64,000 nt of DNA from Ignisphaera sp. (GTDB taxonomy: Archaea; Thermoproteota; Thermoprotei_A; Sulfolobales; Ignisphaeraceae): contig JAWAHS010000007.1 of NCBI GenBank assembly GCA_038889075.1, positions 11,387 to 75,386 of the forward strand, in the 5' to 3' direction. Both the position numbers and the translations under genes were made by a program. The notes under the pieces were generated by a model. The model searched no databases. It was given only the letters and a program-made list of their open reading frames with translations, and was not told the origin of the DNA. Shown here in pieces: positions 5,632 through 23,098 of this stretch. How positions within the stretch are numbered: the stretch's first letter is position 1; each line of letters starts with the position of its first letter.

Positions 5632-6547
5632 ACTCTATCCTCCTCAATCCGAGAGCCAAAGAGATAGCTATAGTTAGACATAGAACTATCAAGGCTATAG
5701 GTAAGATTAGTAGTCGCGGAGACGGTTGTAGAGAAAACCAGTATAAGTTAGCAACCTTGTGTAGAGTATTGAGTGCTACTATGGATATCGATATAAGAAA
5801 CATTAAAATTATAGAAGATATGCTAGTTATGGCTATTGCAACCCCTAAGATAATCTTCCTTCTATCTATGCCAAGATATAGGAACACCTCAATTTCATCT
5901 TCAAGTGCGGTAAATACCCTCGACAAAGCTATATACATAAGAGGTGCATGGGCTATTAACAATGCTGTTATCCAGGCCAAAGAAGCCTCAACTACACCTT
6001 TCTCCAAGAACTTAAAGGCATACCTCAATACCTCCAACGAATTTATCCTACACAGCTTAACCCTACTATCAATAGAATTGTTAACCAACACTATAACGGC
6101 GTAGAAACCTGTATGAGTATGGGAAACGCATCTCTTGACATCATCTATAGCTATGCCGCCATCTAAGTACCTCCTGTAAATATCCATTGGGACTGATACG
6201 AACCCACAATCTTTTGCTACCTCCTTAAAATTTACGATGTTCTTAAGCAAAATATCTACAGAAGCAATAATCAGAGGTAGCTCAAATTCATTTAATCGAA
6301 CTACCCCAGCTACTTCTACAGAAGAACACAGGTCGGATGTAACATGAGCATCCTGAGCTACAAACAAATTCACGGTGTTAATGACGGTGCCCTGCAGCAT
6401 GGTATCTGCAAACCTGGATATATTTGGTATTGATAGGAGAATAGTAGCTAATACAATAGGCGCTGCAAAGGATACTATCAACGATCTATAGGCCCTTTTT
6501 CTGAGAATAGATAAAATTATAGCTTTTATGATCTCTATAAAAACCAT
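5624..6547 (-). CDS. FtsX/MacB-like ABC permease
   Basis: Same topology as the neighbour, with EDEIEVFLYLGIDRRK and an overlapping stop/start. Confidence 0.7.
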   Translation of the reverse strand: MVFIEIIKAIILSILRKRAYRSLIVSFAAPIVLATILLSIPNISRFADTMLQGTVINTVNLFVAQDAHVTSDLCSSVEVAGVVRLNEFELPLIIASVDILLKNIVNFKEVAKDCGFVSVPMDIYRRYLDGGIAIDDVKRCVSHTHTGFYAVIVLVNNSIDSRVKLCRINSLEVLRYAFKFLEKGVVEASLAWITALLIAHAPLMYIALSRVFTALEDEIEVFLYLGIDRRKIILGVAIAITSISSIILMFLISISIVALNTLHKVANLYWFSLQPSPRLLILPIALIVLCLTIAISLALGLRRIEYG

Positions 6548-7076
6548 AGCTCTTCATCTACATGTTTTACAATTTGTAGGCGTTCTCCAAGGATAGTACT
6601 ACATATTATAAAAAGATTTTTACTGCTATATATTCTTTTCAAAGTCAATCAGACCTTCTGTAATAAGTATAGGGTTGAAAGCCGTGTACCAACGTATAGC
6701 TGTAGCTAGTAAAGCTTAAGCCCAATATTCCCAGGGGGTATGCTAAGCTTATAGTGCATACCCGACATATGCACCATTTTTACCAAAGGCTAAAGGCCTT
6801 AGATGAAGCTATAACGCTTGCTGTATCCTATGATAGTCTTCAGTCTAGAGATTTCTCGTACAATCCTTACCTTCTAACTATATTCTTCAGTAAAGAAAGA
6901 GTAAAGATTCTAATACAACTAATCCCATCCCTCTAGCCCCTAAACAGTTTATCCTCTAAAGTCTCATCATAGATCCTCCTAGTGGTATGGTGCACAATGG
7001 TGTCTGCAAAAAGTTGAGGTATATCTATGAGGTGTTGTGTACGGCTTTGGATGTAGAGAAGAATATGGCTATAGAC

Positions 7077-7316
7077 TTAATTTCTGGTGATGGCTCTAGC
7101 AGATGTAGATTGATATCCCTTTTCTTTTGCATAGTTCTCTACTTCTCTACCTATCCATACTCCCGCTAGAATCCCTATAACCTCTTTCTCTGGATAGCAT
7201 CTCTTCACTATATCGAGTTTACTCAAGAGATTACCTACATCTCCATGCCTAGGCTTAACATTAACTTCAACAAAATATACAGATCTATCGCTCTCTATAA
7301 GAAGCTCTATAGGCAA
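7077..7316 (-). pseudogene. C-terminal fragment of a PD-(D/E)XK coiled-coil nuclease family gene
   Basis: IELLIESDRSVYFVEV...IGREVENYAKEKG aligns with the C-terminus of 34535..35281 (VDLFIETDRAAYVIEVK...IGREVESYAKSKG). The N-terminal part is missing. Confidence 0.75.
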
Positions 7317-7660
7317 CTACCGCCATTGGTTCAATCCATGCTGTGGCTTAGGAAGCTTCAGAGTCTCCCTAAACCTAATACATATGCTACACATATCTAG
7401 CTCCAGCTCACTGGCAATATCATTTGCAAATTCATCTATCACTCTACTCATCTCGTCACTCCTCAGTATCCTCTTAAGCCTATCCATTTTTCTTCTCCCT
7501 TGTATAATAATATAGTTTAACAGTGGTTGCGGTATTCTAGTACTCAATTTAAACACCAATAACAGTATTATATAACGGAGAATATAGATTCTATTAAGAT
7601 GAGCGAAACCGTAAGATAGCAATCAAATTCTCTCGAACGTCGCTATAGCTAAGCTAGTCT
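7317..7660 (-). pseudogene. Deletion scar of a second isc operon: iscU promoter and first codons fused in frame to the 3' half of the HTH-CxxC regulator
   Basis: 7530-7655 resembles 19797-19926. The encoded PQPLLNY..GRR..ELDMCSIC.RF..L.LPKPQ matches 17221..17559. Confidence 0.85.
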
Positions 7661-7845
7661 ATGTAGATATATGGGAGCTTTACTAGTATAGAAAGCATCT
7701 AGAGCTCCATACAATCACTCCAATCTTAGAAAATACATTGAATAGCATCCCATCCACTCTAAATCCATCGATTGTCTACAGGATAAAAAATTTAAAACTG
7801 TTCCTAACGTACAAAATAACACATCTACCCACCGCCTATTTGGGA

Positions 7846-8082
7846 ATGGACATGCCTTTAGAACTAAAAAATGTTATTCCAACTGCTGTATATAGATGCG
7901 AAGTTTGTGGTAAAACTACATCTACTCCAATTCTCTATAAGACTTGCTGTATGAATAAACCTGTTGCCTTATGTAGTCGTGAATGTCTGAATAGGTGGAT
8001 CAGTGAATGGATTAAAAACCAAGAACAGATTCTAAGGAATAGAGAGGGTGCTAGAAAACCCCTTAGAAAACTCTATGCATAG
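7846..8082 (+). CDS. Small Cys-rich metal-binding protein (TRASH/zinc-finger-like)
   Basis: RCEVCGK...TCCMNKPVALCSRECL. Probable start is ATG 7846 or 7852. Confidence 0.7.
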   Translation: MDMPLELKNVIPTAVYRCEVCGKTTSTPILYKTCCMNKPVALCSRECLNRWISEWIKNQEQILRNREGARKPLRKLYA

Positions 8083-8432
8083 CCCAATTCTATGCTATTC
8101 ACGATACTTCTATAGATACTTAGTGGACAATCGCTACACCTTTTATAATTGCCTTTCCATTACCAAAAACATAATCGTAGTATCATCTATACTGACTGGG
8201 ATCAAGACTCTTGGTTTAAACTACTCCTCATTTCGAGTATCTTTATCCCAACTCGGCTACTCTTTTACCAATTTTCCCACACTATCTGATAGATTCTCCA
8301 GCTGTATTCATCGAACTATTCAAACCCTTTTTTAATCGAAATAATGCATGACAAGATATTTAAACTCTTCATCCTCTCTCAATGAGGTGGCCCTGGCCAG
8401 GTATCCCAATGCTGGTGTGGAGAGGCCCTCAG

Positions 8433-8703: not shown

Positions 8704-8997
8704 TCATAGTACCTCATCTAAACATTTAACTATCATGAAATCGCTATAGATATTCTTTGGTCTATCCTCCACTATTGTGAGTGAGTTTATTTCATAAATT
8801 TTATTTAGAGAGATCTTTTCTTTAAACTTCTCTATACAAGCATCGTCACCTTCGGCATAGATCTCTACACATGGAACGCCAATTAAGTTCTCTACATAAC
8901 CTTTTAGATCGAGTGCCTTTGCAATTCTCCATACAAATCTTCTGTATCCAACGCCTTTAACATCACCACATGCAGTAATTTTAACAGCCCTAACCAT
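8704..8997 (-). CDS. acyP: Acylphosphatase
   Basis: GDVKGVGYRRF phosphate loop (canonical VQGVGFR) and GYVENL; 97 aa. Confidence 0.9.
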   Translation of the reverse strand: MVRAVKITACGDVKGVGYRRFVWRIAKALDLKGYVENLIGVPCVEIYAEGDDACIEKFKEKISLNKIYEINSLTIVEDRPKNIYSDFMIVKCLDEVL

Positions 8998-9011
8998 CCT
9001 ATCGTCGCCTC

Positions 9012-10430
9012 CTAGACAAGCTTAAATTCCATTAAAATTCTGTGATCAGCAATGTATTTCTTAAGTTTAGCTGGAGCAATAACCTCCGAATCTCCCTTAC
9101 CGATAACTTCACCAATTATTGATGCATTTAATCCTTTGGCTTTAAGATCCTTTACAACATCGTGTGCTATGGCATCGGGAGCCACTATTATAAATGGTCC
9201 ATTTGTACCGCTTGTCGCATTAGGTATTATATAGAGTTTGGTGGCTAGCTCTGATATTTGTGGAAATAGCAGTGGTACGTCATAGAGCTTTATGGTGGTA
9301 TTGCTACGTTCAGCAAGCTCCTTAACCACTAGAACTCCAGGTCCAGTAACATCCGTAGTTATCGATATATGTTCATCAGGTTTGAATTCTTCTCTGTAAT
9401 ACGGTAGATACTTGTATATTACTTGTGCAGCCTCTATATTTGGTGTTGATATTCTTTCAACAGCCTCATCCTTAGCCTTCTCCACCTCTCTAAGCTGTAT
9501 CCCTAGCTCCTCGATATCCTTAACTATACTCTCATCTACTATACAGGATAGGAAGAGGTTTATAGGGGCCAGCTCTCCCATGGGCCTTGTTATCACTAGC
9601 TTTGATCCAATCTCGACCCTATCTTCAAATAGTGGTGGAGCTCTGTCGCTATAGCCTATGGTTGTTGCCCCCATTAGGAGCCTCCCTCTCTCTAGCTGTG
9701 AGCTCCTCTCAAAGCCAACATCGTACTTCTTTGAGTAAATCTCTATGTTGCTCCAGAGCCTCTCAATAAGCTCCTCAGATGGTGCATTAATTACCGGGTA
9801 TACCCTAAGGTTTCTGTGTACACCTAAAACAAAGATATCGTTTAAAGCATTACTTAGTGCACCACTAACCTGTCTAAAGTCGCCAGGTTCTTGTGTAGGG
9901 TCTACGATATGTATAGTGTCGTTATTTACAGCTGTGAATCCCTCACCTATAGACTCTGGCAAAAAATCAAATAGTATAAATTCATCTTCTGCAAAAGGTG
10001 TTATTATTGAGTGCCCCTTACCGAGATATATTGGTAAATTCAGCTCTGCTAACTTTAAGTAAACGGGGGCTATCTTATCTAGAAATGCTTCTGGTGTATC
10101 TGCATACCTTTGATAGATCTGTACAACAGTTACTGCATACAGCTTTCTACCCCTTGAAACCGTCCTTATATCAGTTAGATCTATTTTAGCTTGAGAGTTC
10201 AAGTGATAGACTCTCCTATGAACCTCACTAGCATCGCCACTAATAATAAGGGCATCCTCCCTTGGAGCTATAGCAAACCTCGATCTATTCAGCTTTTCCT
10301 TTAAATTTCTTATAGCCGGATATACAACTCTAAGGAGGTCAACCTTAACGGCACATCCAGTTGCAAGTGCTAGCGGATTTAATCCAAGCTTTTTATAGTA
10401 TTGAATTCTCTCGATAAGCTCTTCAAACAC
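9012..10430 (-). CDS. SelD-like (selenophosphate synthetase-related) protein, putative sulfur metabolism enzyme
   Basis: N-terminal TGCAVK (Cys and Lys of SelD), DTIHIVD, NALNDIF and TDVTGPG PurM/SelD-fold motifs. No in-frame UGA. Confidence 0.88.
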   Translation of the reverse strand: MFEELIERIQYYKKLGLNPLALATGCAVKVDLLRVVYPAIRNLKEKLNRSRFAIAPREDALIISGDASEVHRRVYHLNSQAKIDLTDIRTVSRGRKLYAVTVVQIYQRYADTPEAFLDKIAPVYLKLAELNLPIYLGKGHSIITPFAEDEFILFDFLPESIGEGFTAVNNDTIHIVDPTQEPGDFRQVSGALSNALNDIFVLGVHRNLRVYPVINAPSEELIERLWSNIEIYSKKYDVGFERSSQLERGRLLMGATTIGYSDRAPPLFEDRVEIGSKLVITRPMGELAPINLFLSCIVDESIVKDIEELGIQLREVEKAKDEAVERISTPNIEAAQVIYKYLPYYREEFKPDEHISITTDVTGPGVLVVKELAERSNTTIKLYDVPLLFPQISELATKLYIIPNATSGTNGPFIIVAPDAIAHDVVKDLKAKGLNASIIGEVIGKGDSEVIAPAKLKKYIADHRILMEFKLV

Positions 10431-10432
10431 CT

Positions 10433-10690
10433 CTACCTACCCCTCTTAACTACAACTATCCTCCACACACCACGTCCAACGTTATCCACGGAGAGAACGT
10501 CATGGCCATCATCACGCATGGCTCTAGGAACATTTTCACATGATGGTGGATTGTCTGTTACAATCTCCAGTACATCGCCTTCCCCAATCTGTGATAGAGC
10601 CTTTCTAGCATATATAACGGGGTAGGGACATACATACCCTCTTACATCCAAGAGATACCTCCTCTTATCAATTCTACTAAACTCAACCAT
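10433..10690 (-). CDS. TusA/SirA/YeeD family sulfur carrier
   Basis: LDVRGYVCPYP motif; 85 aa. Confidence 0.93.
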   Translation of the reverse strand: MVEFSRIDKRRYLLDVRGYVCPYPVIYARKALSQIGEGDVLEIVTDNPPSCENVPRAMRDDGHDVLSVDNVGRGVWRIVVVKRGR

Positions 10691-10743
10691 TTAAGACCAC
10701 TATAGTATAGTGTGTGCAACCAGCTATTTAAAATTCTTTCGCA

Positions 10744-10758
10744 AATAACAGTGTTATT
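10744..10758. promoter_or_regulatory. Palindromic operator AATAACA-G-TGTTATT
   Basis: Perfect 7-1-7 palindrome about 10 bp from the tusA TATA-like box, in the divergent tusA/yeeE region. Confidence 0.75.
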
Positions 10759-10792
10759 AAAATCGAGGAAAATGTTTATGCGGCAACTCTTA

Positions 10793-10809
10793 AAATAACA
10801 ATGTTATTT
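10793..10809. promoter_or_regulatory. Palindromic operator AAATAACA-A-TGTTATTT
   Basis: Perfect 8-1-8 palindrome abutting the TATA-like TCTTAAAA upstream of yeeE. Confidence 0.78.
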
Positions 10810-10828
10810 GATTAAGAATATAGGGTAG

Positions 10829-12043
10829 ATGCACATGCCTACATCCATGGGCTATATAGGCTATATAAGAGATAGGTTTAGGACAGCAGTATTTAGTAAT
10901 AGTGGATGGTCTCCGGTTATTGCAGGGGTTTTGATAGGTTTGATACAGATTATATCATATGTGTGGGTAAATAAGCCATTTACAGTGTACGCAGGTTTTC
11001 TAAATTGGGGGCAGCATATCTATAGCAGTTTAGGGATTAAAATATTCGGAGTTCCAAAACAGTTGCCACTATTTGAGCCTACTTCGACAGGTGACATAGG
11101 GGTTATTATAGGAGCTTCACTAGCTGCAGCACTATCAGGCGAACTAGCATTAAGAAGAGTTGGTAGAGCTATCGATGTTATTGAGGCAGTTGTAGGCGGT
11201 ATTTTAATGGCGTTAGGTGTATCGCTGGCCTTCGGCTGCAACTGGGGCGGTTTCATTTCAGCAATAACGTCATGGAGTCTGCATGGCTTTGCCTTCCTTA
11301 TAGGTGCTGTTATTGGTGGACTGCTAGGTCTACGCTATACTATTTATAGAATAGAGAGTGAATGGAGAAAGAGCCTATCTATGGTCTATGAAAAACGGGC
11401 GCTACTTAATAGTGACAGTAGTAGCAGAGATGCAAGTTACATGCTACTGATACCATTAATAGCGCTAGGTATCCTAGTGGCTTACTATGCTATAGTGGGT
11501 AGCTATATGGTTGGGGGAATGCTCATGGGCACTATTGTTGGTATTGTTTTGCAGAGGTCGAGGTTATGCTTTGCAACAGCATTTAGAGATCTATTCAATG
11601 GACCTGAAAATAGAAGAGCTCTAGATATCCATAAGGGCATAGCGGTAGCTATTCTAGTGGGGTCTGTGGGAGTCTTTGCACTAAAGTATATGGGGATCAG
11701 AGACCCAATGATATCGGTATCGCCAGTTCATGTTACAAATGTTTTAGGGGGGCTGATCTTCACTTTTGGTTCAATAGTGGCTGGAGGATGTGCCTCAGGA
11801 GTACTATGGAGGGCTGGGGAAGGCCATATGAAGTCCTGGATTGCCATATTATCAACTGTATTAGCATACCCTATATTCGCATCACTACTACGACCGCTAA
11901 CCTCATCTTTTCCAAGAGTATTTTTACCAGCTGTGGTAGGATGGATAGGAAGCTTTGTAGCGATGCTGATCTTTATCGCAGCATACACTACAGTGATATA
12001 CTACCTAGAATATAGATACGTAGGTAAACAACGTTTGCATTAG
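10829..12043 (+). CDS. YeeE/YedE (TsuA) family thiosulfate/sulfur-compound transporter
   Basis: Two-repeat membrane protein with the conserved Cys motifs FGCN, QRSRLCF and GGCASGVLWR. Confidence 0.92.
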   Translation: MHMPTSMGYIGYIRDRFRTAVFSNSGWSPVIAGVLIGLIQIISYVWVNKPFTVYAGFLNWGQHIYSSLGIKIFGVPKQLPLFEPTSTGDIGVIIGASLAAALSGELALRRVGRAIDVIEAVVGGILMALGVSLAFGCNWGGFISAITSWSLHGFAFLIGAVIGGLLGLRYTIYRIESEWRKSLSMVYEKRALLNSDSSSRDASYMLLIPLIALGILVAYYAIVGSYMVGGMLMGTIVGIVLQRSRLCFATAFRDLFNGPENRRALDIHKGIAVAILVGSVGVFALKYMGIRDPMISVSPVHVTNVLGGLIFTFGSIVAGGCASGVLWRAGEGHMKSWIAILSTVLAYPIFASLLRPLTSSFPRVFLPAVVGWIGSFVAMLIFIAAYTTVIYYLEYRYVGKQRLH

Positions 12044-12117
12044 GTCGTTAAATGGCTCCTAGGTCTTTAGGTAAAGCCATTTTTTAGGTTATGTAGGGTA
12101 AGACTTTTAAGTGTATT

Positions 12118-12134
12118 AAATAACATTGTTATTT
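12118..12134. promoter_or_regulatory. Palindromic operator AAATAACA-T-TGTTATTT
   Basis: Perfect 8-1-8 palindrome between the TATA-like TTTTAAG and the thiF ATG (12144). Confidence 0.78.
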
Positions 12135-12143
12135 GTGATCTAA

Positions 12144-13193
12144 ATGAAAGTTTATCCAGAGGCTTTTGCGGATTATATTGAGAGGTATTCAAGGCAGATA
12201 ATGGTTTTAGGTGTTCAGAATCAGTTGAAACTCTCAAAGGCTAGAGTAGCAATAATCGGCTGTGGGGCCACCGGAAGCAGTGTCGCAGAGGTTCTGGCTA
12301 GAGCTGGTGTGGGCTTTATAAGAATTGTTGATATGGATTTTACTGAGATTAGCAATCTCCATAGAGTTCACCTCTATACAGAGGCGGATGCAAGAAACAG
12401 TATTTTGAAGGCTTTTGCATGTAGGAGGCACCTAGTTGAGATTAACAGCTCTATTGAGGTTGAATCAATTGCAACTGCTGTGGATTCGTCAAATATAGAG
12501 GAGCTTGTAGGAGATGTAGATCTTGTTATAGATGGTACTGATAATATCGAGATCAGACTTCTAATAAATGAGGCATGTGTGAAGCTCAGTAAGCCATGGA
12601 TCATGATTGGTGTTGAGGGGTGGTATGGGATGGTGAAATTTATAGACGCAGCAAAAACTGCGTGCCTCAGATGCTTTATTACAAGTACACCTAGGAGGAG
12701 ACAGAATGCATGTAATATTATAGGTGTTGTCAATACGGCTGTATTTATTACAACAGCAATAGCATCTACGCTAGCATTAAAGCACCTTCTTGGATGTGAT
12801 GTAGATGAAGAGCTGTTTATAATCGATAGCTATAGCCTACACATAAAGAGGGTCAAGGTGCTCAAGAATTCGAGATGCCCCGTCTGTGGATTAAATATAT
12901 TTGAACACCTATCAAAGTCCGATGAATCTAATATAAGGATATGCGGAGGCAACTCCGTAGAAATACGGCCGCAGAGAAAAGTTGAGATAATGCTAGAGAA
13001 GCTAAAGAAGGAGATGTTTAGACGTGAAAATATTATCATTGAGGATCACATAGCCTACATACATAGAGATGGTGTACAGATGGCACTCTTTAGAGATGGA
13101 AGAGCACTCATCAAGGGGATTACAGATGTTGAGGAGGCTAAAAAGCTTTACCACAGTATATTGGATGAATTGAGGAAATACGTCGCAGATTAA
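12144..13193 (+). CDS. ThiF/MoeB/HesA family E1-like adenylyltransferase
   Basis: RYSRQ, GCGATG, SNLHR, DGTDN, Zn-binding CLRC and CPVC, and the candidate catalytic Cys in NAC. Confidence 0.93.
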   Translation: MKVYPEAFADYIERYSRQIMVLGVQNQLKLSKARVAIIGCGATGSSVAEVLARAGVGFIRIVDMDFTEISNLHRVHLYTEADARNSILKAFACRRHLVEINSSIEVESIATAVDSSNIEELVGDVDLVIDGTDNIEIRLLINEACVKLSKPWIMIGVEGWYGMVKFIDAAKTACLRCFITSTPRRRQNACNIIGVVNTAVFITTAIASTLALKHLLGCDVDEELFIIDSYSLHIKRVKVLKNSRCPVCGLNIFEHLSKSDESNIRICGGNSVEIRPQRKVEIMLEKLKKEMFRRENIIIEDHIAYIHRDGVQMALFRDGRALIKGITDVEEAKKLYHSILDELRKYVAD

Positions 13194-13419
13194 TAGCTAA
13201 ATAAAGTTTTCCCTTAACGTCCCCCTGAAGTTCAATATACCAGGGATTCGGATACTGTTTTCCAATAATATAAAGGAAAATAGAAGATTATTTGTAAGGG
13301 GGATTCTGTTATAGACTGGCAAATAGCAATATTTAACGTGCTTCTCATTATCTCTTTACGAATTCTAAAGCTCCCGACTTTTCTTCAATGGGCATAACGC
13401 CAACATCTACTAAAGTCCT

Positions 13420-13810
13420 CTATGCATACATTAACTCTACACCTAAGATGGTTCAAGTCCTTCAGAACTATTACCGCACCGTATCTATACACTCTCTGCT
13501 ATCCTGCCACTTAGCTTATGTGCATAGTCCCACAAGACATTTTTAATTCTTTCACAATATCTCTCAATATCTCTCCTAGCTCCCTTGACGAATCTCCGCG
13601 ACTTGGGATGGCGCTTCTGATCCTCTCAATCTATATTCTGTGGGTTAGGAGTCCTCCTGTAGGTGTCTTGAACCTTTCTAATCCAAGTAGTGTGCTACTG
13701 ATATCAACAAACCGCTAGAGTTACGTTGTTGAAGTTCACATCCACAGTTATGACAGCTCTGCGTTGTTTCCTTAACTTAGCAGCTTCCTGAAGTATGTGG
13801 AAATACATCT
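13420..13810 (-). pseudogene. tnpB: Degenerate IS200/IS605 tnpB (RNA-guided endonuclease) fragment
   Basis: Hand translation across frameshifts gives VITVDVNFNNVTLAV (RuvC-I), RFKTP..LTHRI*IERI, KNVLWDYAHKL and IVLKDL (RuvC-II, E replaced by K). Confidence 0.85.
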
Positions 13811-14223
13811 AATTGCAAGTCAAAGATATGATTGGATATGCTCTATATGAGTGGAGAGCTTATGGTAAGTCTCCTATTCCTATATATTGTTGAGCTCTTC
13901 TAGGTTTATGTGTAGTGAGGGTACTGTGTAACCGTAGTAGGAGTGTCTGGTTGTTTTTGGTGGAAATACGTTCTTCTCTATGAGTACTTTCCTTAGTATT
14001 GCAATCTGATGGGTTAAGGTTCGAGATATCGAGATTCCCGATTCTACTATGCCACGAGATTTGGTTGGGTAATGTACGGCTTTTCCAGCGCAGTTCAATA
14101 TGTAATAGTATGTAGAGTATTGTAGCATTTATAGATGTTTTTACCATACTTATATGAATAAATATTTAAAAAGATTAAACTATGAAATAGTGGTAGCTAC
14201 CTGTATCCAGGTGCTGATGAGCA

Positions 14224-16125
14224 ATGCATGGTGCTAGATCTGCTAATGATATGGAGAATCTGGTGCTGTATTTAGATAGGGTCCTCTCACCTAAAATGTA
14301 CGAAAGGCTTATGAGGATTAGGGATCCTTCGCTACACAGATGGATAGCAAGAATAATTAGCATAGCTAGACCCTCATCGGTATATATACTCACTAGTGAT
14401 GAAGATGATGCTGTATATGTAAGGAGAGCTGCTATTGAGAGAAGAGAAGAGTTGCCCACCAAATACCCTATGCATACCGTACACTTTGATGGTATTAACG
14501 ATCTTGCTAGAGATAGGAAGAACACCAGAATACTGCTTCCTCACAATAGAAGCATTCCCTTCTTAAACACATACGATAGGGAGATGGGTATTGCAGAGAT
14601 CTTTAGGCTAGCTGAAGGCATTATGGAGGGTAAGGAGATGTTTGTAGCTTTTTACTGTTTCGGTCCCAGAAATTCGGATTTCACTATGTACGCTGTGCAG
14701 GTAACCGATTCAGCATATGTCATCCACTCTGAAAATATTCTATATAGACCCTGCTACGATGTTTTTGTCGAGAAGGCACCGCATATAGAGTATGTAAAGT
14801 TCTTCCACTCAGCTGGGGAGCTAGATGAAAATAATTGGTCTAAGAATGTAAATATGAGAAGGATATACATAGATGTTGTCGATAGTGCTGCCTACAGCAT
14901 AAATACCCAGTATGCTGGAAATAGCGTTGGTCTTAAGAAACTCATGCTTAGAATGTGTATCTATAGAGGATGTAGAGAGGGATGGTTATGCGAACACATG
15001 TTTATTGTTGGAGTTAGAGGGAATGGTGATAGGATAACGTATTTCACAGGTGCTTTTCCCGCTGGATGTGGTAAAACTTCAACTGTTTTTGCAGCTGATA
15101 CAATTGTTGGAGACGATATAGCTATAATCAAAGCTATAGATGGTGTAGCTAGAGCAGTAAATCCTGAGGTAGGGATGTTTGGTATCATAGATGATATCAA
15201 CCCGGCAGATGATCCTGCACTCTACCAGCTACTAACATCACCAGAGACGGAGGTTATATTTACAAACGTACTTCTAATGGATGATGGAGAGGTATGGTGG
15301 AGAGGAAAGCCAGAGCCACCTAAACCAGGCATCAACTATGCTGGAAGGTGCTGGCCTGGAAAAGGTGATGGAGGGGATAACGAAGTTCCGCTTTCCCATC
15401 CAAATGCTAGATTCACTATGTCCATAAGGTATCTAAATAATCTAGATCCAAGGATAGACGACCCCAATGGCGTTCCCATACAAGGTATGATCTTCGGTGG
15501 AAGAGACTACCACACACTACCATCAGTTGTAGAAGCCTTTAACTGGATCCACGGCATAATTACCATGGGCGGTGCTCTAGAGTCAGAGAAAACAGCTGCT
15601 ATACTCGATGGAACCAGTGAAATGGAATTTAATCCGTTTGCCGTACTAGACTTCCTACCAATATCTATTGGAAGGTTTCTAGAGCTTCACCTAGATTTTA
15701 GTAGAAAGCTTTCTTCCAAACCCAGGATATTCAATGTCAACTACTTTTTAAAAGATGAAAATGGTAGATTCATAGCAGGTAAAAGTGATAAGAGGGTCTG
15801 GCTTAAATGGATGGAGCTTAGGGTACACGGAGACATAGATGCGGTAGAGACCCCCATAGGATACATACCTATCTACAGCGATCTCGCCAAACTATTTGAC
15901 CGATACCTTGGCAAAGAGTACAGTGAGGCTAGATACGAGAAGGAATTCACAATCATGATAGCCAGTCTAATCAGTAAGATAGAGAGGCTGTGGAACATAT
16001 ACTCTGCAATACCCGATACACCACCGATACTCTTTGAGACGCTAAGAATCCAGAAGAAAAAGTTAGAAGAAGCAAGGTCTAGCTACGGGGATAAGGTAAA
16101 GCCATTCAAATTCAGCAAGATTTAA
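14224..16125 (+). CDS. pckG: Phosphoenolpyruvate carboxykinase (GTP)
   Basis: GWLCEHM, GAFPAGCGKTS, VGDDIA, NPEVGMFG, HPNARF and FGGRD. Confidence 0.96.
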   Translation: MHGARSANDMENLVLYLDRVLSPKMYERLMRIRDPSLHRWIARIISIARPSSVYILTSDEDDAVYVRRAAIERREELPTKYPMHTVHFDGINDLARDRKNTRILLPHNRSIPFLNTYDREMGIAEIFRLAEGIMEGKEMFVAFYCFGPRNSDFTMYAVQVTDSAYVIHSENILYRPCYDVFVEKAPHIEYVKFFHSAGELDENNWSKNVNMRRIYIDVVDSAAYSINTQYAGNSVGLKKLMLRMCIYRGCREGWLCEHMFIVGVRGNGDRITYFTGAFPAGCGKTSTVFAADTIVGDDIAIIKAIDGVARAVNPEVGMFGIIDDINPADDPALYQLLTSPETEVIFTNVLLMDDGEVWWRGKPEPPKPGINYAGRCWPGKGDGGDNEVPLSHPNARFTMSIRYLNNLDPRIDDPNGVPIQGMIFGGRDYHTLPSVVEAFNWIHGIITMGGALESEKTAAILDGTSEMEFNPFAVLDFLPISIGRFLELHLDFSRKLSSKPRIFNVNYFLKDENGRFIAGKSDKRVWLKWMELRVHGDIDAVETPIGYIPIYSDLAKLFDRYLGKEYSEARYEKEFTIMIASLISKIERLWNIYSAIPDTPPILFETLRIQKKKLEEARSSYGDKVKPFKFSKI

Positions 16126-16648
16126 TGTAAAAGTTGCCACCACAATGCTCTTCTACAAGGATTTTACTAATGTACTCTATTAAATCCTTCAATCTATGTA
16201 GAAGAAGTCGAATAAAGAAAATACGGTGATCCTGTAGCTAAAATCATTTTGATAGAGAGATAACGGGCTTCGATTAAATCTGTAGTTTAACAGCACCTCT
16301 AATGCAATGTTAATACCTTTGGAACCCATTTCCCTTGAAGAGAAAAGGGTGTTTTTCTAGTCTACCCAGAATTGCTAAGGAAACGATAGAATTGCTAAGC
16401 ACGGATTCCGCTATGGATGGTGCAAGCAATTCGATATGGGAATGGTATTCGGTATGCAACCTAGACTCAGAAAATCATTTAATATACATATAGCAGAGCT
16501 GATATTTGTTTAAAACAGTAATTGGTTTTCCTCTGATCATACAATTCCAAACATATCAAGGAAAGTATCTATGCTAGCGATTCGTAATAGTAGAGAGGTA
16601 TACATAGGTTCTGGTACACCTAAAATAGATCCTATAGTTGAAAATGTA

Positions 16649-17182
16649 CTATTTCTTTATGTACTTCTGCACAATATTTTTAATAGTATCATCTATACCA
16701 AGTTCTTTAGATGCTCTTTCAATTTCCTTCTCCACACCATCAATGATGTCAGCTACATCGAATCCTAGAGACTTGTATTCCAAACCCTTAACATATGTTG
16801 CTATATAGTTACATAGTTTTGCCACTTTGGACTCCACATCATCTTGATTAGTGTAGCTAATGTAGAGTTTTTTGATGGTATCACTATCTATGCCTTCCTC
16901 TACAAGCCGAAGCTCGATAACCTTCTTACGATCACCTACTTCAGAGCTGAATACCTTAACGATATCACCGGTAAAAGCCTCGCCAATATCATGAACAATT
17001 GTATAGAGAATAAGTTTTCCAAGATCAACGCCAATTCTACTTCCAATATCCAAGCATATGTATGAGGATAGGAAACTGTGCTCAGCTATGCTTTCTGCTA
17101 AATATCTCGGTACACCTCTTAGCATCCAGCCACTTCTAGCTGTAGAGATTAGAGACTTTGCAATACTTACGGTATTCTTCAT
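16649..17182 (-). CDS. HD-domain hydrolase (YfbR/5'-deoxynucleotidase-like)
   Basis: RSGW, ESIAEHS and HDIGEAFTGDI. Last gene of the isc operon. Confidence 0.88.
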   Translation of the reverse strand: MKNTVSIAKSLISTARSGWMLRGVPRYLAESIAEHSFLSSYICLDIGSRIGVDLGKLILYTIVHDIGEAFTGDIVKVFSSEVGDRKKVIELRLVEEGIDSDTIKKLYISYTNQDDVESKVAKLCNYIATYVKGLEYKSLGFDVADIIDGVEKEIERASKELGIDDTIKNIVQKYIKK

Positions 17183-17220
17183 ATATTCCTACCTCGATGT
17201 TCTGTAGGTAGCTATTGCCA

Positions 17221-17559
17221 CTATTTTAATCTGTACTGTGGTTTGGGAAGATCTAGATGTTCTCTAAATCTAGTGCATATACTGCACATATCTAGCTCTA
17301 GTCCACTGGCAATCTCATCTGTAAGCTCATCGACTATTCTACTTACTCTACCATCTCCTAATACCCTTTCTAGATTGTGTAATCTTCTCCTCCCCTTTAT
17401 AACATAGTTTAGTAGTGGTTGTGGTAGACCAACAGCTTTTGCAGCCTGTAGTTGGGAAAAGCTATACCTCTCTATAAGATTCAATGCTATAGCTACCCTT
17501 ATAGGCGTTGAATAGATTTTTATAAATAGTTCACAAAACGATTTCCTAATCATATCCAC
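17221..17559 (-). CDS. HTH transcriptional regulator with N-terminal CE and C-terminal CxxC (COG2522-like)
   Basis: FCE..., the HTH SQLQAAKAVGLPQPLLNYVIKGRR, and MCSIC. Confidence 0.85.
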   Translation of the reverse strand: MDMIRKSFCELFIKIYSTPIRVAIALNLIERYSFSQLQAAKAVGLPQPLLNYVIKGRRRLHNLERVLGDGRVSRIVDELTDEIASGLELDMCSICTRFREHLDLPKPQYRLK

Positions 17560-17571
17560 AACCCTAAAAAT

Positions 17572-17790
17572 CTACATTCTAACAATATGTATCTCGAAAT
17601 ACCCACCTCTAACAATAACCTCTATACTACCTATACTAAAAGCTTTTACCGTCTCCACAATCACATCTACACACATCTTCGATGATGTTAACACAACTAG
17701 TTTGGTGTTCTTATCCATCTTAGATAGCTCTCTAACAGTTTTTACCAAAGGCCCTGGACATTCCTCGCCTCTAAAATCCAGCAGATGCAT
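17572..17790 (-). CDS. TusA family sulfur carrier
   Basis: LDFRGEECPGP motif. Confidence 0.9.
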   Translation of the reverse strand: MHLLDFRGEECPGPLVKTVRELSKMDKNTKLVVLTSSKMCVDVIVETVKAFSIGSIEVIVRGGYFEIHIVRM

Positions 17791-17803
17791 GTAGATTCCT
17801 CTA

Positions 17804-19042
17804 TCAACTTGGTTTCAAAGAACTTATACTCCTAAGTCTTTCAACAGCCTTTGGCGTAACATCTAGTGTATAGTCTATATCCTCTTCTCTATGGTAGTGC
17901 GATAATTTGAATAGTATACTTCCATGGGCCTCCTCATGCTTCCTGCCAATAGCTAGCAGTACATGGCTTGGCTCTAAAACTCTACTAGTACACGCACTAC
18001 CGCTGGAAACATATATTCCATTGAGACTAAGCTCTACTGTTACAGCTTCCCCCTCGATATACAGAAAGCTTAGATTTGCATTATTCGCTACCCTGTACCT
18101 CACATGCTCATCCCAGGGCCCATTTACAATAACTGAGGGGATCTTCTCAACTAGTCCGTTGATGAGCTTATCCCTAAGTCTTTCAACATAGCTGACCCTA
18201 TAGTCAAAGTCTCTGAAAGTTATTTCCACAGCTTTTTTAAAACCCGCTATGAGGGGGGTGTTTTCAACCCCTGGCCAAATTTTTTCAACACTTAACTGCC
18301 CTCTTATAGGGGGCTCCAGCTCCACATCCCTTTTAACATAGAGGACCCCTACACCCCTAGGGCCGTGAATCTTATGGCTACTTATAGTCATCATGTCGAC
18401 GCCAAGCCTTCTAACATCTATGGGTATCCATCCATAGCCATCAGCGGCATCAGTATGAAATACAGCATCCGGATTCATATCCTTAACAACATCTATAAGC
18501 TCCTTTAATCTCTGTATAGTGCCAATCTCATGGTTTACAGCCTGGATGCTTACTAGAACAGTATCCTTATCAATATACATTTTGAGTAGCTCTGGATCCA
18601 CAAGACCATTTCTATCAACAGGGATGAGCTGCACCTTAAATCCAAGTAGCTCTGAAGCAAATTGCGCTGGAAATATAGTGCTCAGATGCTCTATGGCTGA
18701 TAGAACAACCCTACCTCCCCTACCTCTATTCTTTAGAAGATAGCCAAGTATAGCAAGATTGTTTGCCTCTGTACCACTGTGTGTAAACACAATCTCTTCA
18801 GGATCTACACCCCCTATAGTTTTTGCAACCAGCTCTTTTGTTTCATAGATAACCTCTAGGGCTTCCCAACCAACTCTATGTGTTATGGATGGATGTCCAT
18901 AGCCCACCCTATTAAAGTAGGGTATCATAGCCTCAACAACTTCCTGGGGGACAAAACCACTGTTCTCTAAATCGTAGTAAACCTCTCTAGAGGGCTTTCC
19001 ATGCACCTCTAGAAACTCCCTTATCTTCCCAGACATGGACAT
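17804..19042 (-). CDS. iscS: Cysteine desulfurase, IscS/NifS group I (atypical)
   Basis: SGTEANN, EH, the PLP-binding Lys in SSHKIHGPRG, and the catalytic Cys in SSGSACTS..EPSHVL. Confidence 0.92.
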   Translation of the reverse strand: MSMSGKIREFLEVHGKPSREVYYDLENSGFVPQEVVEAMIPYFNRVGYGHPSITHRVGWEALEVIYETKELVAKTIGGVDPEEIVFTHSGTEANNLAILGYLLKNRGRGGRVVLSAIEHLSTIFPAQFASELLGFKVQLIPVDRNGLVDPELLKMYIDKDTVLVSIQAVNHEIGTIQRLKELIDVVKDMNPDAVFHTDAADGYGWIPIDVRRLGVDMMTISSHKIHGPRGVGVLYVKRDVELEPPIRGQLSVEKIWPGVENTPLIAGFKKAVEITFRDFDYRVSYVERLRDKLINGLVEKIPSVIVNGPWDEHVRYRVANNANLSFLYIEGEAVTVELSLNGIYVSSGSACTSRVLEPSHVLLAIGRKHEEAHGSILFKLSHYHREEDIDYTLDVTPKAVERLRSISSLKPS

Positions 19043-19044
19043 GT

Positions 19045-19296
19045 CTATTCAGTACCTCTTCTAGCTATAATAAAAACCGACTTACCATCTATATTCTTCA
19101 ACTCTTTAATATAGTAGTTGTATCTAGACAGGAAGAACTCCATGGCGTTTATAGGTATATCATCTAAGTTAATGTATATCCTAATCTCATCAACATTCCT
19201 TCTACTAATCTCTGATAATTTGTTGGATAGTACAACAACTGGGTGTGATGTACATGTACTTGGAATATTTCTGAGATCCATTTCCTCGACTTTCAA
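19045..19296 (-). CDS. Divergent TusA-like small protein
   Basis: DLRNIPSTCTSHP resembles DxRGxxCPxP; size and predicted secondary-structure pattern fit TusA. Confidence 0.65.
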   Translation of the reverse strand: MKVEEMDLRNIPSTCTSHPVVVLSNKLSEISRRNVDEIRIYINLDDIPINAMEFFLSRYNYYIKELKNIDGKSVFIIARRGTE

Positions 19297-19808
19297 CGGC
19301 TTTCACCCGAGGTTAGAGCCTTTAAAGATCTATAGTATCTCTCCACCATCTCCTCCTCTTCAAAAACCTGCTTCTCCTCAACAGTAAGATCTTTTGGAAG
19401 CCACGAAGGGCTCTCACCAACCCTCCTATAGTAGGCCCTTATACCTCTCTTCAAAGCACCTACAGCCAAAATGCTGCAGTGGTACTTAATTGGTGGGAGG
19501 CCCCCCAGCACATCGGATATCTCCCTCCACGTTATTTTCCACGCATCTTCAAGCTTTCTACCAGTTATCATCTCAGTTATAATACTTGCAGCAGCGATAT
19601 TAGCTGCACATCCATAACTTTCAAAACCAGCCCTTTCCACATAATCACCATCACCCCTCCTGCTAATCTTAAGATAGAGTTTTATCATATCGCCACATGC
19701 AGGGCTACCGGCACTTTCAACAACAGTCGCATCGCTTAAAGGCCCTAGATTCCTAGGGTTTCTAAATAGCTCTAGAATTTTTGGGCTATAGGGTAGCGGT
19801 ATTCTCAT
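19293..19808 (-). CDS. iscU: Fe-S cluster scaffold IscU/NifU-N
   Basis: NPRN, GSPACGD, YGCAA and PPIKYHCS (three Cys). Start is ATG 19808, or TTG up to 19826. Confidence 0.95.
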   Translation of the reverse strand: MRIPLPYSPKILELFRNPRNLGPLSDATVVESAGSPACGDMIKLYLKISRRGDGDYVERAGFESYGCAANIAAASIITEMITGRKLEDAWKITWREISDVLGGLPPIKYHCSILAVGALKRGIRAYYRRVGESPSWLPKDLTVEEKQVFEEEEMVERYYRSLKALTSGESR

Positions 19809-19824
19809 ACTCAATCCAACCACC

Positions 19825-19839
19825 AATAACAGTATTATA
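19825..19839. promoter_or_regulatory. Degenerate operator AATAACA-G-TATTATA upstream of iscU
   Basis: Matches the palindrome at 13 of 15 positions and lies between the TATA-like box and the start. An identical copy survives at about 7558-7572. Confidence 0.6.
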
Positions 19840-20461
19840 TATGTATCAATATATTAAACTTTACCGATATGAATAGAACCATAGTGTGGTAATCAAATTC
19901 TTCTGGGCACCACTATATAGCTAAGTATTTAAAGCGGGCTTCCCCCACACCACTGCTCTATCTAGCATATAATTCAGTACCTATTCGAGGTTTAGGTATG
20001 CCTCTGAGTTTCTAGATACTCTGTTTTATTTGGCCTGACTTCTCTAAATGCTTTTCTTCTTAGCTTTCACATGTATCACCATGTTTCTCAAGCCCCTTGT
20101 AGCAACTCCATGTTTCATACACTAAACCGCCTTACTGTATCACGCTAATAGCTACAGCTATACCTCTGAAGACCTGTAGCCAGGCATTAAGAATGATACA
20201 GCTCCGCCAATTAACGCTATAATAGCTGTATCGACTAATATAAGTATAATGCCGATAGAATTTAACACGGATGCTGTAGTAGTTTTCCGCCGTACTTCAA
20301 CCCCACCTCCATTATCTACTTAGAGTATCTAAGTTTATTTATGGTATAAGGGTTGAATGGTTGGTTTTTTGTATTGTTTAAAGTAGATTGGTTACAGCTT
20401 AAGAGCTTAAATAAAGTTTAAATTATTAAGCTGTTTAAGATGATCGTAGTTAGCTGGAGAA

Positions 20462-22012: not shown

Positions 22013-23098
22013 CTATGTATTGGCTAAATACTTCTGTAGCTGCTCAATGTACTTATATCCATGGTCGGGGAACACCAGTATATAGTCACCTTCATCAAGT
22101 TCGCCACTCTCCACAAGCTTTCTATAGCCTGTATAGACAGCACCGCTACTCAGTCCCACAAATATACCCTCTCTTCTAACCATATATAGAACAGACTGTA
22201 GCGCTTCCTCAGGTGAGGCCTCCACTATACCATCTATATCAGCGTAGTGTAGCCACTTCATACCAGACTCAATACGCCTTATACCCTGTATAGCAGTTCC
22301 TTCCTTAGGTACCACACCATAGATTCTGACACCCCTGAACCTACTCTTAAAGTATATCGCTATAGCCGATAGGTGGCCGGAAGTCCCTAGACCACCCACT
22401 ATAGCTTTAGGGAATATGCCAGCTTCTCTAATTTGCAGCTCTAGTTCTTTTGCTGTATACCTAAGGTGTACGGCAAAGTTGGCATCGTTGTAGAACTGAT
22501 TGAGGTGTACAGCACCCTCTCTTTTAGCAACATCTTCAACATCATCTATAAGCTCTATCGTAAGTGGCTTAGAGGACCTTACAACCTCAACACCAAATAT
22601 CTTCAGTAGATGTTCTCCCGATTGTGAAACTGTAGATGGTATATATGCCCTAAGCCTTGAGTTGTACATGTTTGCCATGGCAGCTATCGCCAACCCTGTG
22701 TTTGTTGAAGTTGATTCAACTAGGAATCCGAGCTCCCTCCTACCATAGGTTTCAATAGCCCTTCTATACATATACCACCCAATTCTATCCTTAACACTCA
22801 TACTCCATGGATTAAACCCCTCCAGTTTAGCCCAAACAATTCTATTCCTTATAGAAGCCCTACTAAGCCTCACTAGCGGTGTTGGCCAATTCCTATACAG
22901 AAGCTCCTCAGTATCCCTAAAGACTCTATATGTGCTTGGCTGTATATCTTCAAAGAAGCCTAGAACCTCTAGAGGTACAAATATTTTCTCCACATCGAGA
23001 GACACCGGAACCCTCCTAACACCAAGTCTTTTAAGTACCTGAAGAAGCTTACAGCCCTCAACAACCCTACCCCCACTAACAGCTACGGTCCTATCCAC
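22013..23098 (-). CDS. PLP-dependent cysteine synthase (CysM/O-phosphoserine sulfhydrylase-like) with a degenerate N-terminal ParB-like domain
   Basis: PTPLV, KLEGFNPWSMSVKDR, STSTNTG, NQFYN, GLGTSG and FPDHGYKY. The frame stays open upstream to 23239. Confidence 0.9.
   Translation of the reverse strand: MDRTVAVSGGRVVEGCKLLQVLKRLGVRRVPVSLDVEKIFVPLEVLGFFEDIQPSTYRVFRDTEELLYRNWPTPLVRLSRASIRNRIVWAKLEGFNPWSMSVKDRIGWYMYRRAIETYGRRELGFLVESTSTNTGLAIAAMANMYNSRLRAYIPSTVSQSGEHLLKIFGVEVVRSSKPLTIELIDDVEDVAKREGAVHLNQFYNDANFAVHLRYTAKELELQIREAGIFPKAIVGGLGTSGHLSAIAIYFKSRFRGVRIYGVVPKEGTAIQGIRRIESGMKWLHYADIDGIVEASPEEALQSVLYMVRREGIFVGLSSGAVYTGYRKLVESGELDEGDYILVFPDHGYKYIEQLQKYLANT

Follow-up and report, generated by a model that had tools for sequence, protein, structure and literature searches.

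The SelD-like proteins of archaea were described in 2014 together with their acylphosphatase and SirA/TusA partners, and a thiophosphate hypothesis was put forward for their function (Li et al., 2014; PMC4210487). A role in sulfur metabolism, which an earlier note on the DNA studied here had mentioned as a proposal, is thus in print, and the family is curated as NF038049; according to a review from 2026 its function is still speculative (PMC13188914). Here we analyze a stretch of 64,000 nt of DNA from Ignisphaera sp. (contig JAWAHS010000007.1, hereafter the window), in which the gene for such a protein and an Fe-S cluster assembly (isc) operon share one palindrome with a transporter gene and an E1-like gene. 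As in the published family, the protein carries a Cys-x-x-Lys loop, has a TusA/SirA-like neighbor and is accompanied by an acylphosphatase (Li et al., 2014; PMC4210487). However, the published family was linked to dissimilatory sulfur genes, whereas here the company consists of yeeE, Fe-S assembly genes and thiF, and that paper describes no regulator or operator (PMC4210487).

Several other systems resemble parts of this arrangement. A bacterial neighborhood of YedE, SirA-like/YedF, selenocysteine (Sec) lyase and SelD brings the same four families together (Lin et al., 2015; PMC5322559), but in the window all four score below the selenium NCBIfam cut-offs and appear co-regulated with IscU and ThiF. 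In thiosulfate uptake by YeeE/YeeD (TsuA/TsuB), a YeeE-family protein is likewise paired with a TusA-fold protein (PMC11073785), and SoxT proteins, which are YeeE-like, import sulfur and also pass a signal to a repressor; in SoxT1B/SoxR the importer is associated with a cysteine-bearing repressor (PMC11582611), as would be the case here. Differences from TsuA and SoxT are the length of the transporter (404 aa vs 330-350), the TsuA and TsuB cut-offs, which are not reached, and the type of the candidate regulator, which is XRE and not ArsR (PMC11582611).

For the isc genes the closest relative is the MIS system (MisS/MisU) of archaea, which has the same two-gene pair of IscS/IscU type, without chaperones or A-type carriers (PMC13066941). 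MIS is described as having no further components (PMC13066941), whereas in the window the pair is accompanied by two TusA-type proteins, the candidate regulator and an HD-domain hydrolase. In one related locus, L004, ThiI takes the place of the hydrolase. In bacteria, the IscR and SufR regulons are organized around a cysteine-bearing repressor that is encoded in its own Fe-S operon and whose palindromic operator is shared with other Fe-S promoters. The likeness to the window is one of logic; the differences are a helix-turn-helix (HTH) that is of XRE type by homology, an archaeal host and a set of genes that adds the SelD-like protein, YeeE and ThiF. SurR of the Thermococcales is a CxxC switch on sulfur genes that releases DNA when it is oxidized by sulfur (PMC7289023). 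SurR binds GTT-n3-AAC and controls hydrogenase and sulfur-reduction genes (PMC7289023), whereas here the site is ATAACA-n-TGTTAT and the apparent targets are biosynthetic. Moreover, the CxxC of the protein in the window stands at the start of its last helix and is joined by a third invariant Cys at residue 7, and no search returned a sequence relationship with SurR.

A palindrome at five promoters and its conservation

Five copies of the palindrome AATAACAnTGTTATT stand beside start codons between 7.5 and 19.9 kb. Its architecture is 6-1-6, ATAACA-n-TGTTAT, with the 13-nt core ATAACAnTGTTAT. When searched as AATAACANTGTTATT with up to two mismatches, the pattern gave six matches in the 64 kb, whereas 100 shuffles averaged 0.78 and never exceeded 4. 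In a scan with a 13-nt weight matrix made from 19 sites of the window and its relatives, five sites scored 19.9-22.5 and the next-highest position 14.1, the five sites being themselves part of the matrix. The five copies are:

10744-10758, operator copy 1, AATAACAGTGTTATT, on the tusA side of the divergent region between tusA and yeeE; perfect match, matrix score 22.5
10794-10808, operator copy 2, AATAACAATGTTATT, ending 20 nt before the yeeE ATG; perfect match, matrix score 21.9
12119-12133, operator copy 3, AATAACATTGTTATT, ending 10 nt before the thiF ATG; perfect match, matrix score 22.2
19825-19839, operator copy 4, ending 10 nt before the TTG start of iscU; matrix score 19.9
7558-7572, operator copy 5, ending 10 nt before a gene for a short paralogue of the candidate regulator; two mismatches; outside the range covered by the earlier note

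Copy 1 lies at a distance of 53 nt from the tusA ATG, with the best TATA-like box downstream of it; together with copy 2 it forms a larger inverted repeat of 26 nt. Copies 2 and 3 overlap the A/T boxes CTTAAAATAA and TATTAAATAA, respectively. Copy 4 has two mismatches to the 15-mer and one to the 13-mer core, and copy 5 lies within a 50-nt stretch that is 88% identical to the iscU promoter and 5' end. The sixth match, at 40335, was taken as chance (one mismatch, matrix score 11.7), because it falls inside the 3' end of an operonic ABC permease gene; a position at 51697, which is inside an open reading frame (ORF) and scores 14.1, was rejected as an operator as well.

The genes concerned, in the order of their units, are the following:

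10433-10690, minus strand, TusA-type carrier of 85 aa with a CPYP motif, first in the tusA-selD-like-acylphosphatase unit (PF01206, 77.8 bits, cut-off 28.6)
9012-10430, minus strand, SelD-related protein of 472 aa, a PurM-superfamily ATP enzyme with an N-terminal Cys26-x-x-Lys29 loop (NF038049, 573.1 bits, cut-off 250)
8704-8997, minus strand, acylphosphatase-like protein of 97 aa (PF00708, 59.1 bits)
10829-12043, plus strand, YeeE/YedE-family membrane protein of 404 aa, candidate importer of a sulfur species (PF04143, 145.6 bits, cut-off 27)
12144-13193, plus strand, ThiF/MoeB-type E1-like adenylyltransferase of 349 aa, with its own operator (PF00899, 206.6 bits)
19293-19814, minus strand, IscU/MisU-type Fe-S scaffold, first gene of the isc operon, TTG start at 19814 (PF01592, 125.5 bits)
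19045-19296, minus strand, protein of 83 aa with a conserved DLR..CTSHP motif, possibly a divergent TusA-like carrier, without a Pfam or NCBIfam match
17804-19042, minus strand, IscS/NifS-type (MisS) cysteine desulfurase of 412 aa (PF00266, 214.6 bits)
17572-17790, minus strand, second TusA-type carrier, 72 aa, with CPGP and a second conserved Cys (PF01206, 47.4 bits, cut-off 28.6)
17221-17553, minus strand, candidate regulator, an XRE-type HTH protein of 110 aa with a CxxC motif and invariant Cys7, Glu8, Arg56, Cys90 and Cys93
16649-17182, minus strand, HD-domain hydrolase of 177 aa, last gene of the isc operon (PF13023, 48.7 bits; YfbR-like, 26.9 bits)
7317-7547, minus strand, short paralogue of 76 codons, in which the first codons of iscU are fused in frame to regulator residues ~45-110
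14224-16125, GTP-dependent phosphoenolpyruvate carboxykinase, between both clusters and without an operator site

The tusA, SelD-like and acylphosphatase genes are separated by 2 and 14 nt; yeeE diverges from them and is followed after a 100-nt gap by thiF; the six genes of the isc string overlap or leave gaps of at most 38 nt. The earlier note had described this same arrangement, and the ORFs with their Pfam and NCBIfam matches agree with it. Its claim that one palindrome is common to all the named transcription units also holds, the yeeE, thiF, iscU and tusA sites all being present.

To see the palindrome in other genomes, an alignment of 25 SelD-like proteins was used to retrieve 66 loci (labelled L001 and so on) from contigs of one genome per species, and the core was counted at up to one mismatch and compared with composition-matched first-order Markov simulations. 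In the five nearest loci (66,924 nt) it occurs 16 times, against 0.8 simulated (maximum 3 in 30 simulations); in 21 middle loci 7 times, against 1.2; and in 40 distant loci once, against 4.2. All 16 matches of the near group lie outside ORFs of at least 70 aa. Twelve of them are at yeeE, tusA or iscU promoters (including the site at 851 of L002, before yeeE), three are at other promoters of L004 and one is at a contig end. Perfect cores stand before iscU in L003 and L004, at the position seen in the window, and the core also precedes thiF in L007 and yeeE in L012 and L024. The motif has been kept at these orthologous promoters even though the SelD-like proteins of the operator-bearing relatives are only 51-67% identical. 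Variant palindromes that keep the ACAnTGT center were found at the operator position of yeeE in L006 (ATGACAGTGTCAT) and L008 (TTAACACTGTTTAA), where 90 nt of upstream DNA was inspected.

A different repeated word (TTTAACGG...) is found at the same position upstream of yeeE in L009, L016 and L017. It was seen in several loci labelled Pyrodictiaceae or Thermoproteota and may be a diverged or replaced operator.

At most of the promoters a TATA-like box lies 5-12 nt upstream of the palindrome or overlaps it, and the start codon follows 9-30 nt downstream. Archaeal repressors bound at such positions block the recruitment of TBP/TFB (TATA-binding protein and transcription factor B) or of the polymerase, and a protein on the palindrome would be predicted to prevent initiation in this way.

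The surroundings of the SelD-like gene have a common core. A TusA gene is next to it in 43 of the 66 loci, directly upstream and on the same strand in 28; an acylphosphatase gene follows in 28 loci, and in 27 yeeE is no more than 3.5 kb away. Among the closest relatives the units are combined differently. In L003 and L004 the iscU-p83-iscS-tusA-regulator string directly adjoins yeeE (p83 being the 83-aa protein), and in L005 the tusA, SelD-like and acylphosphatase genes continue into a second tusA and thiF as one co-directional string, with the HD gene adjoining yeeE. L004 (Ignisphaera sp. RSNS13) has a ThiI-domain gene (PF02568, 190.9 bits) after the regulator, at the place that the HD gene has in the window. 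The motif is also present in L004 between an FTR1 iron permease gene and a thioredoxin reductase gene (TIGR01292, 352 bits, cut-off 343), before a gene for LarE (TIGR00268, 286 bits, cut-off 150) and before a hemerythrin-like gene. This gene set speaks for the supply of iron, sulfur and thiols rather than for sulfur respiration. Within the clade, the genes swap partners without separating. The comparison of neighborhoods across relatives, which the earlier note had called for, supports its co-regulation part, with yeeE, tusA, iscU and thiF promoters keeping the core and the operons being reshuffled.

Two loci deserve further description. In L005 (355-8215), HD and yeeE diverge from the tusA-selD-like-acylphosphatase-tusA-thiF string, a convergent AIR-synthase-related (ThiL-like) gene comes next, and two further ORFs after it resemble thiE and thiM by eye. 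In L004, where the region and its sites are at 4161-8282, 12413, 15927 and 20300, a hemerythrin gene also continues the isc string, and a Thi4 gene is found at 14153-14947.

It could be objected that the palindrome is no operator and that A/T-rich promoter sequence or local duplication gave rise to it. Three sites do overlap A/T boxes, and copies 4 and 5 share one duplicated 50-nt segment and are not independent of each other. However, shuffles and Markov simulations that keep the composition do not reproduce the motif (0.8 simulated against 16 seen), its core C and G positions are the best kept of all (36 of 38 half-site readings each), and the sites persist at orthologous promoters at 51-67% protein identity. 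We consider this explanation extremely improbable: the palindrome is real and above chance rather than a coincidence. Co-regulation by one operator is well supported, because the motif is far above chance, abuts or overlaps TATA-like boxes and is kept at the orthologous promoters of relatives in which the genes reshuffle between operons. Judging from the sites, one switch probably controls all five promoters.

Elsewhere the window contains glycosidase and ABC transporter genes. A cysteine-synthase-like pyridoxal phosphate enzyme of the CysK/M subfamily (159.9 bits, cut-off 344) is encoded at 22013-23098 on the minus strand, 2.2 kb past the iscU promoter, and the matrix scan shows no operator-like site near it. 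The stretches 19860-20460 (~600 nt) and 13200-14220 (~1000 nt) are without a convincing ORF or Rfam match. The nearest named database entries are proteins of Ignisphaera sp. metagenome-assembled genomes (MAGs); one of these shares 99% identity with the regulator, and others share 65% with the SelD-like protein.

The candidate regulator and its paralogues

We infer that the XRE-type protein of 110 aa encoded in the isc operon is most likely the protein that binds the operator; the earlier note had named no regulator. By its own sequence it matches no family in Pfam or NCBIfam, HTH_3 (PF01381) included at E<=0.1. Nevertheless, an exhaustive HMMER search retrieved 72 representative relatives at E<=1e-3; 40 of the 49 that were aligned match HTH_3, and Cys7, Glu8, Arg56, Cys90 and Cys93 are invariant in 49 of 49. 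The family profile finds only XRE/Cro/HipB chains in the PDB (best E 7.7e-5). The AF2 model (pLDDT 92.3) is all-helical; Cys7 opens the first of its six helices and the CxxC opens the last, and Foldseek returned no PDB fold match for it at E<=1e-3. No relationship to the Rrf2/IscR/SufR family was seen: it is not among the Pfam and NCBIfam matches of the window protein nor among those inspected for the 49 relatives (all 25 of NCBIfam and the first 25 of 70 of Pfam), and IscR of T. potens aligns with the model at a Foldseek E of 1.8 only. The look-alikes found with a language model fall into clusters of small regulators that are 90-100% archaeal and come from several phyla, according to automatic labels. 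The regulator gene belongs to the operator-controlled operon in the window as well as in L003 and L004.

A repressor with a site of three Cys plus a carboxylate, encoded in an Fe-S assembly operon, recalls IscR and NsrR. By analogy, the site may either hold a cluster as in IscR/NsrR or work as a thiol switch as in SurR (PMC7289023).

A different assignment would have the operator bound by another factor encoded elsewhere, such as a general redox, oxygen or iron regulator, with the HTH protein of the isc operon having other targets or handling clusters, and the whole being a stress or iron response instead of a circuit for sulfur supply. The operator-controlled genes of L004 would suit such a response, as an iron permease/thioredoxin reductase pair and a hemerythrin-like gene both have the motif in front of them. 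Six of the eight operator-bearing related loci show no orthologue of the regulator in the available DNA, and a second paralogue type stands beside DUF438/hemerythrin-PAS genes in L004 and L012. On the other hand, the regulator is inside the operator-controlled operon in all three genomes in which the isc string was seen, a duplicated operator drives a truncated copy of the regulator gene itself, and no further DNA-binding gene is present at 8.7-19.9 kb. We therefore regard a factor from elsewhere as somewhat unlikely and continue with the isc-operon protein as the regulator.

The truncated copy is the short paralogue. Its DNA is composed of two parts: 7306-7534 matches 17201-17426, the 3' two-thirds of the regulator gene, at 74.4% of 223 nt, and 7525-7574 matches 19792-19841, comprising the iscU promoter, operator and first codons, at 88% of 50 nt. 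The two alignments share 10 nt, which suggests a microhomology junction; the short paralogue resembles an isc operon that was duplicated and then collapsed. The product retains the recognition helix and the CxxC helix and is without the Cys7 helix; it could be a decoy, an anti-repressor or a remnant. A 56-aa ORF that differs from it in one residue exists in another record (P0139). The similarity of the DNA upstream of iscU to the duplicate at 7.6 kb reaches 19901.

Other members of the family were noted along the way. The second paralogue type (18352-18741 in L004 and 11586-11993 in L012) has no N-terminal Cys and a Cys-rich C-terminus, and lies directly downstream of a DUF438/hemerythrin/PAS-type gene in both loci, the neighbor in L012 having been recognized by eye. 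The gene at 11586-11993 of L012, beside a DUF438-like gene, was for this reason not accepted as an orthologue of the regulator. In P0152 (117 aa), the first 41 residues of a regulator-family protein are joined to the last ~75 of a SelD-like protein; by its sequence this is a deletion or assembly chimera between regulator and SelD-like genes in some relative.

The SelD-like enzyme, its partners and the sulfur carriers

The SelD-related protein is a member of the published family, its residues 4-470 matching positions 2-464 of the 465 of NF038049. All 25 aligned sequences have C26, K29, N194, D198 and D360, and N194/D198 and D360 align with the NvLSDL and TDITGFG motifs of human SPS1. In the AF2 model (pLDDT 90), the Cys loop (23-27) is of low confidence and flexible. 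In the PDB fold search, selenophosphate synthetases came out on top (E 6e-18 to 2.8e-15), with HypE and ThiL behind them. The protein stays well below the SelD equivalog cut-offs (TIGR00476, 22.5 vs 125; NF010705, 41.1 vs 291).

In 2014 the family was reported from Sulfolobales and Thermoproteales only, and as absent from Desulfurococcales (PMC4210487), the order to which NCBI assigns the genus Ignisphaera. Our loci include records labelled Ignisphaera, Acidilobaceae, Pyrodictiaceae, Thaumarchaeota, Methanoperedens and Hydrothermarchaeales, and one MAG labelled Acidobacteriota. Among L045, L046, L049-L060 and L065, whose labels were taken as recorded, the SelD-like gene is found in MAGs labelled Thaumarchaeota, Nitrososphaerales or Nitrosopumilales, frequently accompanied by tusA and yeeE, or in Hydrothermarchaeales, Methanoperedens and Acidobacteriota.

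The acylphosphatase partners keep the phosphate-loop motif in 24 of 29 sequences, and a Lys-Cys motif is present in the last 16 residues of 6 of the 29. These six are exactly the protein of the window (8704-8750) and those of the five nearest loci with the operator, L001-L005.

It was also considered whether the SelD-like protein and the acylphosphatase act like HypE and HypF instead of like SelD. The acylphosphatase-like protein would then handle carbamoyl phosphate or another acyl phosphate, and the PurM-type enzyme would use ATP to modify a protein-bound thiol (Cys26 or the Cys of TusA) without free thiophosphate. There is sequence similarity of the acylphosphatase-like protein to HypF, in the N-terminal domain of the latter (E 4.1e-10), and of the SelD-like protein to HypE (E 3.2e-5); HypE structures, including the HypE-HypF complex 3vti, come just behind SelD in the fold search (E 4.9e-14 to 2.5e-11). 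An acyl-phosphate model was also offered by Li et al. (PMC4210487), and the C-terminal Lys-Cys of the acylphosphatases in the operator clade (6 of 29 sequences) is a further point in favor. However, the N-terminal Cys-x-x-Lys loop is of the SelD type and invariant, and the best matches in both fold and sequence are selenophosphate synthetases. HypE has its modified cysteine at the C-terminus, whereas the SelD-like protein ends in FKLV, without a Cys at or near this end. A HypE/HypF-like chemistry is thus unlikely in our view, although a serious rival to free thiophosphate, and activation of sulfur by a SelD-type enzyme is preferred in what follows.

The transporter was compared with models of both selenium and thiosulfate proteins. 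It reaches 150.4 bits with YedE/FdhT (cut-off 350), more than with the TsuA models (86.9, cut-off 645, and 106, cut-off 400), all being below cut-off. In the same way, the first TusA protein scores 65.3 bits with YedF (cut-off 79) and 45.5 with YeeD/TsuB (147.5), again both below cut-off. The earlier note had inferred that imported thiosulfate yields TusA persulfide; these scores do not favor thiosulfate. Three cysteines (137, 247 and 321), the only ones in the transporter, are kept in 18 of 18 orthologues, and three conserved cysteines are typical of the YeeE family (PMC11582611).

These scores bring up selenium. In this reading, the YedE-like transporter, the YedF-like carrier, the NifS-type lyase and the SelD relative would make selenophosphate for an unrecognized archaeal use. 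The same four families cluster in selenium-using bacteria (PMC5322559), the NCBIfam scores favor YedE/FdhT and YedF over TsuA/TsuB, and Li et al. could not exclude a selenium role (PMC4210487). Nevertheless, according to the same paper none of the known selenium traits occurs in Crenarchaeota (PMC4210487), and the cut-offs of SelD are missed by far (22.5 vs 125; 41.1 vs 291). The window has no tRNA-Sec, SelA or SelB: the statement of the earlier note that no Sec machinery is visible was borne out by 0 tRNA genes, 0 Rfam matches and no SelA/SelB Pfam match in the 57 ORFs scanned. Furthermore, the operator links these genes with Fe-S assembly and, in the case of L004, with ThiI and LarE, and the family occurs in MAGs of ammonia-oxidizing Thaumarchaeota. 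A selenium module is therefore quite improbable, and sulfur is retained as the element probably handled.

Two of the three small proteins are clear TusA relatives. The 85-aa (CPYP) and 72-aa (CPGP) proteins both exceed the TusA Pfam cut-off and have the Cys-Pro-x-Pro motif, and the 72-aa protein aligns with the first TusA at an hhalign probability of 99.4%. Its orthologues are in the isc operon in L003 and L004 and between the acylphosphatase gene and thiF in L005. The 83-aa protein, the tusA' of the earlier note, aligns with TusA in register but weakly (hhalign E 0.035, probability 1.4%, from 3 sequences), and its motif is CTSHP and not CPxP. Its best ESM Atlas cluster is labelled 'putative TusA family' (0.90), which may be its own cluster. 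A homologue search returned only two near-identical Ignisphaera entries, too few for a useful profile, and orthologues are in place in L003 and L004.

The Fe-S genes carry the expected catalytic residues. Both proteins stay below the NifS, IscS and IscU equivalog cut-offs (NifS 365.7 bits vs 530.75), but the domain scores are clear, the SSGSACTS loop and the SSHK lysine are present in the translation of the desulfurase, and the IscU cysteines are present in GSPACGD, YGCA and YHCS. The start of iscU was placed by alignment with the orthologues of L003 and L004. The ThiF-type E1 reaches no equivalog cut-off; its gene adjoins a tusA gene in L005 and L007. The HD hydrolase has an orthologue of 54% identity beside yeeE in L005.

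The proposed regulon and its implications

From the sites, their conservation, the protein families and the synteny observed above, we infer an autoregulated regulon for the supply of sulfur and of Fe-S clusters and thio-cofactors in an Ignisphaera-like archaeon; on balance we lean toward this proposal, in which the identity of the binding protein, repression, the sensed signal and every chemical step enter as predictions. A dimeric repressor would bind ATAACA-n-TGTTAT where it overlaps or directly follows the TATA-like box of five promoters. The units held down in this way would be iscU-p83-iscS-tusA-regulator-HD, tusA-selD-like-acylphosphatase, the yeeE/yedE-like gene, thiF and the truncated regulator paralogue. 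If the repressor is the 110-aa XRE-type protein of the isc operon, the system is autoregulated. Its three invariant cysteines and the neighboring glutamate would report the status of an Fe-S cluster or of sulfane sulfur, and on loss of the signal the repressor would leave the DNA and all units would be switched on together.

As to the chemistry, the YeeE/YedE-like protein would import a reduced sulfur species, and the TusA-type carriers would take up this sulfur, and also sulfur from the cysteine desulfurase, as a persulfide. The SelD-related enzyme would then use ATP to activate sulfur on its Cys-x-x-Lys loop, thiophosphate or an enzyme-bound equivalent being our working guess for the product, and the acylphosphatase-like partner would act on a phospho-intermediate. 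The sulfur would end in Fe-S clusters on IscU and in thiolation that depends on E1 or PP-loop enzymes. This pathway is plausible, and part of it is already in print. Of the single co-regulated pathway that the earlier note had envisaged, the co-regulation stands, with an operator that is kept in relatives; thiosulfate as the imported species is an analogy only, and the formation of thiophosphate and its recycling by the acylphosphatase or the HD protein are conjectural.

Several observations weigh against the regulon as proposed. In the window, the tusA-side site (53 nt away from the ATG) precedes the best TATA-like box, a placement unlike that in the relatives, which makes simple occlusion doubtful for the tusA unit. 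The matrix scan measures how far the five sites separate from the rest of the window and is no independent test. Links beyond the core are narrow, with thiF in 4, iscS in 2 and HD in 1 of the 66 SelD-like loci; being so rare, these wider links are clade-specific. An orthologue of the regulator is found in two of the eight operator-bearing related loci (L003 and L004), a profile search of all ORFs in the available DNA of L001, L002, L005, L007, L012 and L024 returning none; several of these contigs are short, and another part of the genome could encode it. Three cysteines in a protein may also serve to bind structural zinc. The transporter and the first TusA are nearer to the selenium-linked YedE/YedF models than to the thiosulfate pair TsuA/TsuB. 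Finally, no ORF of 50-130 aa ending in GG, as expected of a ubiquitin-like carrier for the E1, is present in the window or in L001-L005 and L007.

A more far-reaching version can be formulated, which we regard as doubtful. In it, imported reduced sulfur carried by TusA would be activated with ATP by the SelD-related enzyme to thiophosphate, the sulfur analogue of selenophosphate. Independently of cysteine, thiophosphate would then supply both Fe-S clusters and the thiolation reactions of ThiI, LarE and E1 enzymes. The route would be controlled by a new archaeal family of XRE type that senses Fe-S clusters or persulfide through its Cys/Glu...CxxC residues.

The shared operator, the family of three-cysteine XRE-type regulators and the link of the SelD-like enzyme to MIS and thiolation genes appear to be new. 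Literature searches returned no description of the operator, of the regulator or of TusA, YeeE and SelD together; their coverage is incomplete and this is no proof of absence.

The conserved operator places the SelD-like enzyme in a defined unit with sulfur import, TusA carriers, MIS-type Fe-S assembly and thiolation. I. aggregans, the type species of the lineage, is described as a fermentative heterotroph (PMC3035270). Taken together, the operator unit and the fermentative lineage argue for a biosynthetic role of the enzyme and against the dissimilatory role first proposed. MIS is described as the least studied Fe-S machinery, for which no accessory factors are known (PMC13066941). The small three-cysteine HTH family encoded beside it here, which is archaea-wide, comprises 72 representative clusters and is uncharacterized, may be the archaeal answer to IscR and SufR.

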